Source: an uncultured Spirochaetota bacterium
Lineage (GTDB): Bacteria > Spirochaetota > Spirochaetia > SZUA-6 > Fen-1364
Direction: 5' to 3'
Assembly: GCA_963820525.1 (NCBI GenBank)
Contig: CAWGAA010000001.1
Coordinates: 1,632,001-1,696,000, forward strand
DNA: 64,000 nucleotides
Shown in pieces: positions 36,001 to 39,000 of the stretch (the stretch's first letter is position 1; each line of letters opens with the position of its first letter). The position numbers are program-made.

Positions 36001-39000
36001 CTGGAAGCGCCGGGAAAGGGCGCGATCCTTGTCGAAGTATTTCTTGTACTCCTCATAGGTGGTGGAGCCGATGCAGCGCATCTTTCCCGAGCTGAGAACG
36101 GGCTTCAAGATGTTGGAGGCGTCCATGGAGCCGCCCGACACGGACCCGGCCCCAACCACCGTATGGATCTCGTCAATGAAGAGGATGGCCTTCTCCTGCT
36201 TTTCAAGCTCCTTGATGACCCTCTTCATCCGCTCCTCGAAGTCCCCGCGGAACTTTGTCCCCGCCAGGAGCGCCCCCATATCCAGGGCATAGATGCGGAA
36301 TCCGCGGAGCGCCCGCGGGACCTTTTCGTCCACGATGAGCTGGGCCAGCCCCTCGGTTATGGCAGTCTTACCCACGCCGGCCTCGCCCACATGGATGGGA
36401 TTGTTCTTCAGCCTCCGGCAGAGGACCTGGATGGTGCGCTGGAGGATGTCTTCCCTGCCGATGAGCGGATCGATTCCGCCTTCGCGCGCCTTCCTGGTGA
36501 GCTCCACCGTGTAGGATTCCAGGGCGCGCGCGCTCTTGCGCCGGCCGCGGGCGGCGGGCTGCCCGGCGCCCTCTTCGGCCTGCTCCTCCTCGGCCTCATC
36601 CCCTTCCCCGTCGCCCGGCTCGGAATCCCGCTCGGGGAAGACGGTGACCCCATGGGAGATGTAGGTGAGCAGGGCCAGCCTGTCGATTCCCTGCCGGGCC
36701 AGGAAGTGGGCGGCGAATGATTCCTTCTCGTCGAAGATCGAGACCAGGATGTCGTCGATCTCCACGGTCTGCTTTTCAGCCGAGGCCGTGTGGAGGATTG
36801 CCCTCTCCATGACGGACTGGAAGCCGGCGGATTGGATGGGCTTGGAGCTCTCCGAGGTGGGAACGTGCCCCATGAAGTATTCCTCGATGTCGCGGGTGAG
36901 GGAGCGAACGTCGCCCCCGCATTGGGAGATGATCTCGCGCCCGCGGTCGAAGAAAAGGGAAGCGTACAGGACGTGCTCCGGGGTCAGGTACTCGTGGCTT
37001 CGGGATTCGGCTTCACGGTAGGCGGCGATGATGATCTGATTCAGCTCGTTACTGATGTCCATTCACGCTTCCTCCGAGGTCGCCTTCAGGGGAAACTCGT
37101 TCTGCCGGGCCATCTCGTGAACCTGGGAAACCTTGGTGGCCGCGATATCGAAGGTATACACTCCCACGACTCCCCTGCCCTTCTTGTGCACATCGAGCAT
37201 GATCTTTGTCGCCTCCGCCGCGGGCTTGTGGAAGACGGCCATGACGACCTGCACGACGAAATCCATCGTGGTGTAGTCGTCGTTGTGCAGGACGACGCGG
37301 TAGAGTTTCGGCTCCTGGAGCCGGGGTTTCTGGCGGACCCCGGTGTCCGCTTCGAAGCTGTCGCGCGTCTTGGCCATGAATGTTTCCTTCATTCAATAAT
37401 ACCAGTTTCGCGCCCCGAGAAACAAGCGGGACGGCCGGTTTTCCCCTGAATTTCGTGGAAATAACGCTCATTTTGATTATACTTTGAGAGAGACCATGGC
37501 GCTTTTATCGAAGTACCTTACTTCTCGACGTGTCGTGTTTCTGCGCAGCCGCAGCAAGGATGGCGCCATCCGGGAGCTCGTGCACGCGCTCTGCGCCACG
37601 ATTCCGGACCTCGACAGCATGCAGATCATCCGCGCCATCCAGGAACGGGAGAGGATGGTGAGCTCGTGGATAGCCCCGGGCGTCGCCATTCCCCACGCGC
37701 GCCTGTCCGGCTGGAACGGGATCGCCGTCGCCGTGGGCAGGAGCCGCAAGGGAATCGCCTTCGACTCCAGCGACGGCAACCCCGTCAACCTCCTCATCCT
37801 CATCGTGAGCGACGACCGCGACCCGGATCAGCATATCCAGCTCCTGGCCGAGATCGCCAGAACGCTTCGGGACCTCGCCCTCAAGCAGCTGGTTCTCACG
37901 GCGCGCACCAGCGACGAGGTGTATCGGCTGCTCATAACGCACGGCTATGGAGAGCCGCGGGGCAAGGCCAAGACGTCACCCAAGGCGCGGGTCTCGCGCC
38001 TGCTCTTCGCGCACGCCCTCTCGGTGGCCGAGGAGGTAAAGGCCAACGCCGTCATGCTGCACTGCGACGCGGTGGGCAGCCTCCGCTTCATGGAGGACAT
38101 TCCCTCGCCCATCCAGCTCATCCTGGTGACCTCGGACCGCGCCACCGTGAAGGAGAACCGGAAGCCGGCTCCCCAGATCCTCCAGGTGCCCTTCCCCAGC
38201 CTGAACCGCTCCAACCAGATGGAGCTTTCCCTCCTCTTTGCGGTCTCGCGCGGCCTTCTTTCCCGCGGCGACACGGTTGTCCATATTTCGGGGGTTCCCA
38301 ACTCGGGGCTTCTCGACACGCTCCTGGTAATCGATGTCGGCCGCGAGTTCCCCTCCATCTTCACCCAGCACACCCCGACTCCCATTGGAGACGTGGAGCC
38401 TCAGGTGCTGGAGAAGATCCTCCAGATCGCAATGGACATCTCCCGGGAAGGAAGGGAGGGAAGGCCGGTCGGAACGCTGTTCGTGATCGGAGATTACGAG
38501 AAGGTCTTGAAGTATTGCCGGCAGATGGTGATCAATCCCTTCCGCGGCTACCGCGAGGAGGAGAAGAACGTCCTGGACCCGAGCCTGGGAGAAACGCTCA
38601 AGGAGTTCTCCACCATCGACGGCGCCTTCATCGTGCGGGGAGATGGAGTGATCATGTCGGCCGGCACGTTCCTCAGGCCCGAGAAAACGACGGTGAACCT
38701 CCCCTCGGGGCTGGGAGCGCGGCACGCTGCGGCCGCCGCCTTGACCGCCATCACGGGCTCGATCGCCGTGGTTGTATCCCAGTCCACGGGCACGCTGAGC
38801 CTCTTCAAGGCAGGGGGCCTCGTCATGGCGCTGGAGCGGCCGAAGATGTAGGCTTTTGCCCCCTCCCGATACGCGGGCCCGCGGCCTTCCCCGTTGGGAT
38901 GCTGCTCCGCGGTCGGGATATCCGACGGTCCTGAATACCCCAGGAATGCCAGGACCAGGAGGGCCGTTTCGTGAGGCTTTTCGACGGTCGGCATGTGGCC

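Follow-up and report, generated by a model that had tools for sequence, protein, structure and literature searches.

A predicted diadenylate cyclase with an N-terminal PTS EIIA domain in a spirochaete and its relatives across bacterial phyla

The window that we analyzed, a stretch of 64,000 nucleotides from the genome of a spirochaete (completeness 96.7%), contains on its plus strand an open reading frame (P0001, 37496..38851 including the stop codon) that begins with an ATG at 37496, ends with a stop codon at 38849–38851 and encodes a protein of 451 amino acids. GC3 of this frame is 0.86, and the antisense frame is interrupted by stop codons. Divergent from the gene lie clpS (37063–37392, minus strand; Pfam ClpS, E = 4.7e-37) and clpA (34768–37062, minus strand; Pfam AAA_2, Clp_N and ClpB_D2-small), which together occupy 34768..37392. 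Reading and consensus scanning of the 103 bp that separate clpS from the cyclase gene (37393..37495) revealed a weak sigma-70-like match at 37456–37483 and a purine-rich stretch ahead of the ATG, with the promoter scan returning two matches when 0.5 were expected from shuffled sequences. These promoter-like matches, as well as terminator-like ones, were too weak to be given any weight as functional elements, and none of the 20 sequencing runs listed for the cyclase gene was an RNA run. We likewise set aside clpS-clpA as a functional partner of the cyclase gene: the adjacency is kept in the window's own family-level clade alone (13 loci, some of which represent the same genome counted twice), and thus shared ancestry explains it.

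The preliminary description of this locus had presented the protein as a PTS EIIA domain joined to a DacZ-type diadenylate cyclase, and re-running the searches returned the same three Pfam domains, all above their cut-offs and at the same residue ranges. The first, spanning residues 11–146 (37526..37933, plus strand), is a PTS EIIA type-2 (Ntr/Fru/Mtl-type) domain (PTS_EIIA_2, PF00359; E = 2.3e-24, 86.4 bits against a cut-off of 27), which matched PtsN among PDB sequences (E = 1.3e-13) and had as its best Foldseek matches the PtsN structures 1a6j, 3urr, 4gqx and 2a0j (E = 4e-11, target TM 0.87–0.91, rmsd 1.4–2.3). Its GVAIPHAR motif aligns with the G-x-A-I-P-H-G motif of PtsN structures, and a check of the codons placed His67, the predicted phospho-acceptor, at 37694..37696 (plus strand). 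In both its fold and its His motif the domain is like PtsN (EIIA-Ntr) of Proteobacteria, but PtsN is a free protein that binds its targets in trans, whereas here the EIIA domain is fused in cis to an output enzyme.

A putative flexible linker at residues 151–159 (37946..37972, plus strand), the sole stretch with a pLDDT below 50 in a full-length AlphaFold2 model (mean pLDDT 86.8, pTM 0.62), separates the EIIA domain from the remainder of the protein; with this pTM and a disordered linker, the placement of the domains relative to each other is uncertain. The middle domain, at residues 171–284 (38006..38347, plus strand), matches DacZ_P (PF21755; E = 2.5e-9, 37.3 bits against a cut-off of 27.4) and, more weakly, DacZ_T and PK_C. 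When modeled in isolation (pLDDT 87.3, pTM 0.82), it adopted the fold of a pyruvate-kinase C-domain: Foldseek led to pyruvate kinases (E = 1.7e-7), and VIA-align gave Z scores of 13.2 (rmsd 2.6, 118 aligned), 13.0 and 11.5 against pyruvate-kinase C-domains and of 8.3 against 1vp8. The third domain, at residues 317–440 (38444..38815, plus strand), is the DAC catalytic domain (PF02457; E = 1.4e-20, 73.5 bits against a cut-off of 27), which matched CdaA in Foldseek and contains the motifs GREG (319–322), DGA (375–377), RHA (409–411) and SQS (428–430). The EIIA His motif and the DGA and RH of the DAC site, all previously pointed out, are thus in place.

The two C-terminal domains recall those of euryarchaeal DacZ/CdaZ (Haloferax volcanii DacZ and Methanocaldococcus jannaschii CdaZ), soluble proteins with a PK_C-like N-terminal domain ahead of DAC; unlike these, the spirochaete protein has an EIIA domain, and its middle domain falls into the Pfam family DacZ_P. 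The NCBIfam DacZ model (NF041371, equivalog) matched residues 218–447 with E = 4.9e-40 and 137.6 bits, well short of its cut-off of 430, so we regard the protein as a relative of DacZ and not as an equivalog; its DacZ_P match over the cut-off and the PK_C fold ahead of DAC place it in the DacZ_N superfamily. The setting of the gene also differs, with haloarchaeal dacZ lying beside mscS2 according to excerpts of PMC6741144 and the gene described here beside clpS-clpA. When we searched with the DacZ_P-DAC part of the protein, the best 120 of 4171 matches were bacterial relatives only. The preliminary description had offered as new a DacZ-class cyclase with a defined regulatory domain in bacteria; this claim is weakened, in that the excerpted text of Braun et al. 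(2019; PMC6741144) already states that the DacZ family has bacterial members.

Closest to the fused proteins are EIIA-less DacZ_P-DAC cyclases of ~290–340 amino acids from Syntrophales/Smithella, Thermodesulfobacteriota, Nitrospinota and Planctomycetota, which have the two C-terminal domains in common with our protein (38–47% identity), carry the same invariant motifs and form sister groups of the fused clade in our tree. They have gene neighborhoods of their own: in 24 loci, dac is followed by clpB and an M48 peptidase gene and accompanied by a divergent gene of the sigma-70 family, and in 7 loci htrA is adjacent. As for the fused proteins, those of Verrucomicrobiota and other phyla show the same domain order, align over their full length at 33–43% identity and fall into the same clade, of which the gene in the window is the spirochaete branch. 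The 2023 census of Galperin, 'All DACs in a row' (J Bacteriol 205:e00023-23), reportedly distinguishes 22 DAC families. Judging by the species lists in the excerpts of PMC6741144, the EIIA-less cyclases probably correspond to the 'DacC' class of Corrigan & Gruendling (2013) and the EIIA-fused ones to the 'DacD' class of the same year, the latter probably also making up one of the families of the 2023 census.

The fusion is more widespread in the order than had been thought. The preliminary description had counted DacZ_P in 29 of 91 genomes; we found the full-length fusion in 50 of the 91 other genomes (in one case with an in-frame TAG) and pieces of it in five more. Among 400 other genomes sampled from the phylum, five had the full fusion and three the EIIA-less form. 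The same architecture extends to Fibrobacterota, Verrucomicrobiota, Planctomycetota and others, is carried by at least 89 clusters at 50% identity, and is represented in the ESM Atlas by clusters combining PTS_EIIA_2, DAC and DacZ_P, which are commonest in Verrucomicrobiota. A permuted form, DacZ_P-DAC-EIIA with AIPH kept, is rare and was seen in a single cluster. A tree built from the DacZ_P-DAC part grouped 55 of the 57 fused rows into one clade (SH-aLRT 80), and the fused/unfused label had to change at least twice, a pattern that would allow for the fusion having arisen once. We regard the EIIA-DAC fusion as old and kept.

A family of this size in several phyla takes away from the novelty that had been claimed for the fusion, the more so as names assigned by JGI and NCBI already cover both halves of the protein; the suspicion that databases might list the architecture was correct for JGI, NCBI and the ESM Atlas alike. 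Our literature searches, whose reach did not extend to the 2023 census, found no experimental study of an EIIA-fused DAC, nor did they find any work on c-di-AMP or diadenylate cyclases together with the phosphotransferase system in spirochetes. What we consider new is that the tree leaves room for the fusion to have arisen once, that the fused protein is the sole DAC of one spirochaete genus, that the acceptor His has been lost in some lineages, and that EIIA is fused to several other outputs in these organisms.

We next consider whether the DAC domain is likely to be an enzyme. Ten of its residues (G319, R320, E321, D375, G376, A377, G407, R409, H410 and S428) were invariant in 58 sequences, and of 98 fused cluster representatives all retained D375 and R409 and 97 retained H410. 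This conservation indicates that the catalytic motifs are under purifying selection across phyla. In the DacZ_P domain, P232, R238, G266, D274 and E284 were nearly invariant in 85 sequences. The catalytic domain is the same as that of CdaA, a protein with three N-terminal transmembrane helices that is regulated by CdaR and GlmM. When aligned with Listeria CdaA (6hvl), DGA and G-x-R-H corresponded residue for residue, whereas T-R-H-R was replaced by A-R-H-A, leaving R409-H410-A411 in place of the full RHR motif of DAC, and S-E-E was replaced by S-Q-S.

These replacements could be taken to mean that in this clade the DAC domain has little or no catalytic activity and acts instead as a sensor that binds nucleotides, in which case the real source of c-di-AMP in the host would be CdaA. 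The genome does contain, as previously noted, a membrane CdaA (CdaA_N plus DAC, 263 amino acids) followed by a YbbR protein, and Gln429 of our protein stands where 65 of the 98 fused representatives have Glu. Nonetheless, we consider this reading very improbable. The Ala in the RHR motif, which had been raised as a worry, is a true deviation from the motif, yet position 411 varies throughout the family, fused and unfused (A in 54, T in 16, R in 9 and Q in 8 of 98), while R409 and H410 are kept. Gln429 is shared with 15 of the 98 fused representatives and with 17 unfused ones and therefore does not signal clade-specific decay, and all other motif residues were invariant in the 58 sequences. The match to the NCBIfam DacZ model mentioned above also speaks against a dead domain, with archaeal DacZ and CdaZ both described as active enzymes in excerpts of PMC6741144 and PMC10249747.

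Relatives in the same order that are 41–44% identical to our protein add to the case against a dead DAC domain. In one genus (g6), each of 13 genomes, several of them single-contig, yielded exactly one DAC match, at the fused gene, and the DAC profile search found no CdaA in any of the 13. In the family that includes this genus (f2), DarA (PF06153) and the PgpH 7TM domain (PF07698) were each found in 0 of 24 genomes, a result that is uninformative and gives no independent confirmation of c-di-AMP signalling in these bacteria. In the host genome itself, a search for the c-di-AMP riboswitch RF00379 returned no match.

The host encodes the phosphoryl donors that an EIIA receiver would need. As had been proposed, EI, HPr and HprK are all found in the genome: a single EI, a 586-amino-acid frame with PEP-utilisers_N, PEP-utilizers and PEP-utilizers_C only, and a single HPr, which has GMHARP (His15) and GKSIMG (Ser46) motifs and is adjoined by the HprK gene. 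This arrangement is unlike that of PTS-Ntr, in that the host EI lacks the N-terminal GAF of PtsP and its carrier protein is an HPr that has Ser46 and is partnered by HprK. The genome encodes seven EIIA_2 domains, including a CNNM-CBS-EIIA protein and an EIIA with a tail of unknown kind. Profile searches of the genome with PTS_EIIC, EII-Sor, PTS_IIB and PTS_EIIB gave no matches, and one EIIC-GAT homologue (200 bits), with neither EIIA nor EIIB beside it, was found; thus, of the earlier statement that EIIB and EIIC were both missing, the part on EIIB (searched with PTS_IIB and PTS_EIIB) stands, and the part on EIIC had overlooked this orphan. With no EIIB match to these profiles and the orphan EIIC-GAT as the only EIIC found, the PTS of this host looks mainly regulatory. 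Co-occurrence of EI and HPr with the fusion does not discriminate between readings, since these proteins are near-universal in the order (EI in 91 of 92 genomes); HPr was also present in five of five fusion-bearing genomes of other phyla.

In an alignment of 27 sequences from spirochaete loci and metagenome relatives (A1), A64, P66 and H67 were invariant, with His67 present in 27 of 27; across phyla, 52 of 58 sequences had His at position 67, as did 91 of 98 fused cluster representatives. We lean, with somewhat better than even confidence, toward a soluble c-di-AMP synthase that would be gated by EI/HPr-dependent phosphorylation of His67. The exceptions prompt a different reading, namely that EIIA is a phosphorylation-independent module that binds a partner or ligand or holds a dimer together, with His67 kept for structure or binding. 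Six of the 58 sequences (L055, L069, L070, L074, L098 and L100, all of Fibrobacterota/Chitinispirillaceae type) have Gln at this position while the rest of the EIIA domain and the cyclase motifs stay, one of these Gln67 genomes still contains HPr, and seven of the 98 fused representatives have Q, S, N or R. These losses indicate that the EIIA domain can work without phosphotransfer, and in proteobacteria it is often the unphosphorylated form of PtsN that binds targets, according to excerpts of PMC13104625. A loss of His in few lineages would, however, fit a derivative locked in one state equally well, and A-x-P-H is kept throughout alignment A1. Core residues of the EIIA domain are kept along with it (R51 in 55 and E52 in 58 of 58 sequences), and EI and HPr are both present in the host. 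We judge a module independent of phosphorylation to be unlikely.

Information could also flow in the opposite direction, with the protein serving mainly as a PTS component that either drains off phosphate or, as an EIIA, regulates other targets. Its availability would then depend on ATP or c-di-AMP bound to the DAC domain, or on a metabolite bound to the PK_C-like domain, and its cyclase output would be secondary. The seven EIIA_2 domains that compete for one HPr are in keeping with such a role, as are relatives in which EIIA is fused to transporters and enzymes adjoining dac genes, and a PK_C fold does bind ligands. The strictly kept DGA and G-x-R-H motifs, however, suit an enzyme and not a binder, the fused protein is the sole DAC in genus g6, and no target is known, all of which make this direction of flow improbable.

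For the favored reading of a PTS-gated cyclase we can outline a mechanism, inferring catalysis, phosphotransfer, the sign of regulation and any ligand from the domain content, folds, conserved motifs and phosphoryl donors. All DACs need head-to-head pairing of two DAC domains. The soluble three-domain enzyme would convert two ATP to c-di-AMP by means of its C-terminal DAC domain, paired head-to-head with a second one, and its PtsN-like N-terminal domain would act as the receiver. Phosphate would pass from PEP to EI, to His15 of HPr and then to His67 of the EIIA domain, and the phosphorylation state of His67 may shift EIIA against the middle domain such that productive DAC-DAC pairing is either allowed or prevented. 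HprK/P, by phosphorylating Ser46 of HPr and blocking the His15 route, could supply a second metabolic signal. The middle domain may bring a small-molecule or metabolite input as well; its counterpart in pyruvate kinase binds allosteric sugar phosphates or nucleotides. The enzyme would act alongside the membrane CdaA-CdaR pair, and this host would have at least two further outputs fused in cis to EIIA.

There is also a broader proposal, which we rate as somewhat less likely than not. In bacteria poor in PTS permeases (Spirochaetota, Fibrobacterota and the PVC group), EIIA-2 may be a general cis-acting receiver, comparable to the receivers of two-component systems, that is placed on a c-di-AMP synthase, on CNNM, Na+/H+ exchanger and amino-acid permease transporters, and on a glycosyltransferase, so that an EI-HPr-HprK relay would set c-di-AMP synthesis directly. 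Where the fused protein is the single DAC of a spirochaete genus, this relay would govern all of the c-di-AMP that is made. Under this proposal the fusion would be a cis counterpart of K+ control by PtsN in Proteobacteria, which are not known to make c-di-AMP, and would unite the two great systems of K+ and osmotic control in one polypeptide. Excerpts of PMC13104625 describe the PtsN branch as a PTS without transport that regulates K+ homeostasis and SpoT, its PTS(Ntr) proteins controlling this (p)ppGpp enzyme and K+ transport in trans.

The value of these observations lies in the EIIA-DAC family as a whole, which spans several phyla, rather than in the single gene described here. Of all aspects of c-di-AMP signalling, the switching of diadenylate cyclases is understood least, and to our knowledge the only protein partners known in any detail are those of CdaA and DisA. 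A cyclase input with a defined chemistry, the phosphorylation of a His by HPr, would provide a clean, testable switch. If our reading is correct, it would tie the PEP/pyruvate ratio and the sensing of glycolytic intermediates by HprK to osmotic and K+ control.

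The cyclase gene (37496-38851, plus strand) is an open reading frame of 451 codons that begins with ATG, with an in-frame TTG four codons further upstream; its GC3 is 0.86 in a genome of ~60% GC, and the opposite strand is interrupted by stops. Pfam recovered all three domains named in the preliminary description, each over its curated cut-off: PTS_EIIA_2 (residues 11-146, E 2.3e-24), DacZ_P (residues 171-284, E 2.5e-9) and the diadenylate cyclase domain DAC (residues 317-440, E 1.4e-20). The DacZ_P stretch was also matched, under cut-off, by DacZ_T and PK_C. Because the top NCBIfam match, the DacZ equivalog model, scored 137.6 bits, below its cut-off of 430, we regard the protein as a relative and not an equivalog; over the N-terminus, the fruA-IIA and PtsN models scored nearly equally. 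Checking each motif codon by codon verified GVAIPHAR (containing His67), GREG (319-322), DGA (375-377), RHA (409-411) and SQS (428-430).

The full-length AlphaFold2 model (mean pLDDT 86.8, pTM 0.62; alignment of 58 sequences) had a single disordered stretch, residues 151-159, which separated the EIIA domain from the remainder. When this model was compared with the PDB using Foldseek, structures of PtsN (EIIA-Ntr) ranked first, with target TM scores of 0.87-0.91, followed by DAC domains of the membrane cyclase CdaA. Modeled alone (pLDDT 87.3, pTM 0.82; alignment of 85 sequences), the middle domain resembled the C-terminal allosteric domain of pyruvate kinases (Foldseek E 1.7e-7), and VIA-align against 48,161 representative chains returned Z scores of 13.2, 13.0 and 11.5 for pyruvate-kinase C-domains and 8.3 for AF0103 (1vp8), with unrelated folds at 6.2 or below. 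Five of its residues (P232, R238, G266, D274 and E284) were conserved in at least 90% of 85 sequences, both fused (carrying EIIA) and unfused (DacZ_P-DAC only), and these positions could, speculatively, belong to a ligand-binding or interface site.

Compared with Listeria CdaA (6hvl), the cyclase shares DGA, whereas LGTRHR corresponds to LGARHA and VVSEETG to VVSQSTG. Across 58 family members G319, R320, E321, D375, G376, A377, G407, R409, H410 and S428 were invariant. The DAC domain of the family opens with an invariant GREG motif of its own. Among 98 fused cluster representatives, D375 and R409 were present in all and H410 in 97, while position 411 (Ala here) was Ala in 54, Thr in 16, Arg in 9, Gln in 8 and other residues in the rest; position 429 (Gln here) was Glu in 65 and Gln in 15, and Ser430 was shared by 93. 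The caveat raised earlier, that Ala replaces the second Arg of the RHR motif, holds as an observation, but the variation at position 411 makes the missing Arg a trait of the family and no defect of this gene.

In a genus of the same order (g6), all 13 genomes, several of which are single-contig, lacked CdaA and had just one DAC match, located at the fused gene. Among the indirect arguments for an active cyclase, this sole-DAC status is the strongest. Searches for c-di-AMP receptors and phosphodiesterases in the family to which g6 belongs lent that argument no backing. That the cyclase domain is dead, a reading to which the altered RHR motif might have pointed, we consider highly improbable. 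The sister genus in that family, g5, lacked a DAC in 10 of 11 genomes, so that the two genera (g5, G001-G011; g6, G012-G024) present a complete contrast in DAC content. EI occurs in both, as frames of ~780-820 aa whose length suggests an enzyme of PtsP type.

His67 lies in the A-x-P-H motif, which in PtsN holds the phospho-His. A64, P66 and H67 were invariant in an alignment of 27 sequences from spirochaete loci and metagenome relatives, and His occupied position 67 in 91 of the 98 fused representatives and in 52 of 58 sequences across phyla. The other six all had Gln and belonged to a single Fibrobacterota/Chitinispirillaceae-type clade, whose Fibrobacter member has His. Of 92 genomes in the order, 91 had EI, and HPr was found in all five fusion-bearing genomes from other phyla, one of which has the Gln variant; because both donors are so common, their presence is necessary but uninformative. 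We lean, with moderate confidence, toward a soluble c-di-AMP synthase whose output would depend on phosphorylation of His67: PEP, by way of EI and HPr, would set the phosphorylation state, HprK would modulate it, and that state would govern c-di-AMP output, with the PK_C-like domain serving as the hinge and perhaps also as a ligand site. That EIIA instead acts as a phosphorylation-independent module, as the Gln-bearing clade might do, seems unlikely alongside the prevalence of His67, and a reversed flow of information between the domains, very unlikely. The closest working analogy to the proposed control by EIIA is that of PtsN and PtsP, which in Proteobacteria act on SpoT and K+ transporters according to a review (PMC13104625) that nowhere mentions c-di-AMP.

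The host genome (5.05 Mb in 4 contigs, 96.7% complete) has a single EI, a 586-aa frame with three EI domains and without GAF, and a single HPr with His15 and Ser46 motifs, whose gene ptsH directly adjoins that of HprK, with S30AE/hpf upstream. Public sources assign close relatives to Spirochaetia. A search of this genome for PTS_EIIC, EII-Sor, PTS_IIB and PTS_EIIB found none. One EIIC-GAT homologue, which the preliminary description missed, is present; its gene is flanked by those of a hybrid histidine kinase and AcrB, and neither EIIA nor EIIB is encoded nearby. The Bacteroides thetaiotaomicron genome, searched as a control, matched the same family. Regulatory PTSs that lack transporters have been reported in Planctomycetes, Chlamydiales, Chlorobia and the spirochaete Leptospira (PMC2405797). 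The seven EIIA_2 domains of the genome comprise four small free proteins, the cyclase and two others. One of these two, a 515-aa frame (C1:2609477-2611021, equivalent to L009:1474-3018, minus strand), combines a CNNM (DUF21) transmembrane domain, CBS and a C-terminal PTS_EIIA_2 that keeps GLAIPHARL, and would make a putative divalent-cation transporter the second output fused in cis to EIIA. The other, the genome's third EIIA fusion (C3:545304-546146, equivalent to L008:1108-1950, minus strand), has GWSCPHGRV in its EIIA_2 and ~130 further residues without a Pfam match. The CdaA gene followed by a YbbR gene, as noted previously, is indeed present at another site of the genome, where folP and acpS flank the pair.

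Full-length matches (query ~1-449, 37-73% identity) occurred in 50 of 91 other genomes of the order, one of them interrupted by an in-frame TAG, and five further genomes had only pieces or contig-end fragments. Among a sample of 400 other genomes of the phylum, five had the full fusion and three the EIIA-less form. Scanning one genome per prokaryotic species revealed at least 558 stretches encoding a relative. Of the best 80, 33 matched from the EIIA domain onward (Spirochaetota, Fibrobacterota including Chitinivibrionales and Chitinispirillaceae, Verrucomicrobiota, Pontiellaceae, Planctomycetota and Hydrogenedentes, as well as one deltaproteobacterial MAG and one 'PVC group' MAG), and 47 only from residue ~143-177 onward (Syntrophales/Smithella, Thermodesulfobacteriota, Nitrospinota and Planctomycetota). 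When 1.84 billion cluster representatives (50% identity) were searched with a profile, 749 matched at E <= 1e-30; among the 150 best, 89 did so in one stretch from position <=19 to >=438, and 98 were classed as fused once added to the alignment.

In a maximum-likelihood tree of the DacZ_P-DAC part (107 rows; L051, L065 and L107 were excluded as split or cut ORFs), 55 of 57 fused rows formed one clade (SH-aLRT 80), and the remaining two, a long-branched spirochaete pair, fell in the same polytomy. The fused/unfused label required at least two changes, and a single origin of the fusion is compatible with the well-supported branches. The closest unfused groups were Planctomycetota and Thermodesulfobacteriaceae. 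Because phyla are intermixed within the fused clade, transfer of the fused gene between phyla is likely. P0204, a single cluster, has the order DacZ_P-DAC-EIIA with AIPH retained and would be an independent fusion; it may instead be a gene-calling or assembly accident, because none of the 119 other proteins among the matches listed covers more than 66% of its length. Three further representatives (P0259, P0250 and P0140) extend the DacZ_P-DAC module, one with an N-terminal DHH phosphoesterase domain (which could place synthase and hydrolase in a single chain), one with a C-terminal FAD oxidoreductase (DAO) and one as acyltransferase-EIIA-DacZ_P-DAC. EIIA also occurs on neighboring proteins: a Na+/H+ exchanger-EIIA (L030:2135-3961, minus strand) divergent from an EIIA-less dac gene, a GT2 glycosyltransferase-EIIA (L039:6418-7959, minus strand) upstream of a fused dac, and a Zn-ribbon-EIIA and an amino-acid permease-EIIA (L059:1970-2812 and 5504-7357, both plus strand) on either side of a Pontiellaceae dac gene.

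The cyclase gene stands alone, with clpS and clpA divergent upstream at a distance of 103 bp, an adjacency to clpS that is limited to the window's own family-level clade. Downstream lies a convergent alpha/beta-hydrolase ORF (38548-39819, minus strand, 423 aa), whose Pfam domain ends at about residue 288 and whose tail beyond overlaps the final 300 bases of the cyclase gene; this could reflect a long tail that happens to stay open on the antisense strand of GC-rich DNA, a displaced stop codon or a genuine overlap. In close relatives, an AAA_33 kinase gene takes that position instead. Further downstream are a family-B DNA polymerase (39415-42300, plus strand), an HtrA-type protease (42641-43654) and an IS-type DDE transposase (DDE_Tnp_1, DUF772; 43807-45132, minus strand). 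At nine Fibrobacterota loci an acyltransferase gene precedes the fused gene, and the acyltransferase-bearing representative mentioned above joins the two in one chain. The EIIA-less dac of Syntrophales/Smithella and others (L067-L121) is followed on the same strand by clpB at 24 loci, mostly within ~20 bp (maximum 856 bp), and then by an M48 (HtpX-like) peptidase at 17 and a DUF1844 gene at 7, with a 287-aa sigma-70-family gene divergent upstream at 20; htrA adjoins EIIA-less dac at seven other loci (Nitrospinota and Thermodesulfobacteriaceae). Together with clpS-clpA and the HtrA-type gene near the cyclase gene described here, this company suggests that the cyclase family may be linked to protein quality control or heat shock.

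A 2023 census reportedly distinguished 22 DAC families. Proteins with the EIIA-DacZ_P-DAC architecture are already known: JGI calls them 'DisA with diadenylate cyclase activity / mannitol-fructose-specific PTS IIA', NCBI 'PTS sugar transporter subunit IIA' or 'diadenylate cyclase', and nine ESM Atlas clusters of at least 50 members, most commonly from Verrucomicrobiota, carry the set PTS_EIIA_2, DAC and DacZ_P, the last already a Pfam family. Braun et al. (PMC6741144) state that the DacZ family has bacterial members too and list two classes defined in 2013, DacC (Desulfacinum, Alkalispirochaeta, Syntrophobacter and others) and DacD (confined to Verrucomicrobia), which, judging from the taxa recovered in the present searches, are probably the EIIA-less and EIIA-fused forms, respectively. 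A 2026 gut survey (PMC12901056) counted DacZ mostly in Verrucomicrobiota. No experiments on EIIA-fused DACs turned up in the literature searched. The interest of the EIIA-fused cyclase lies in a testable switch, not in the discovery of an architecture.
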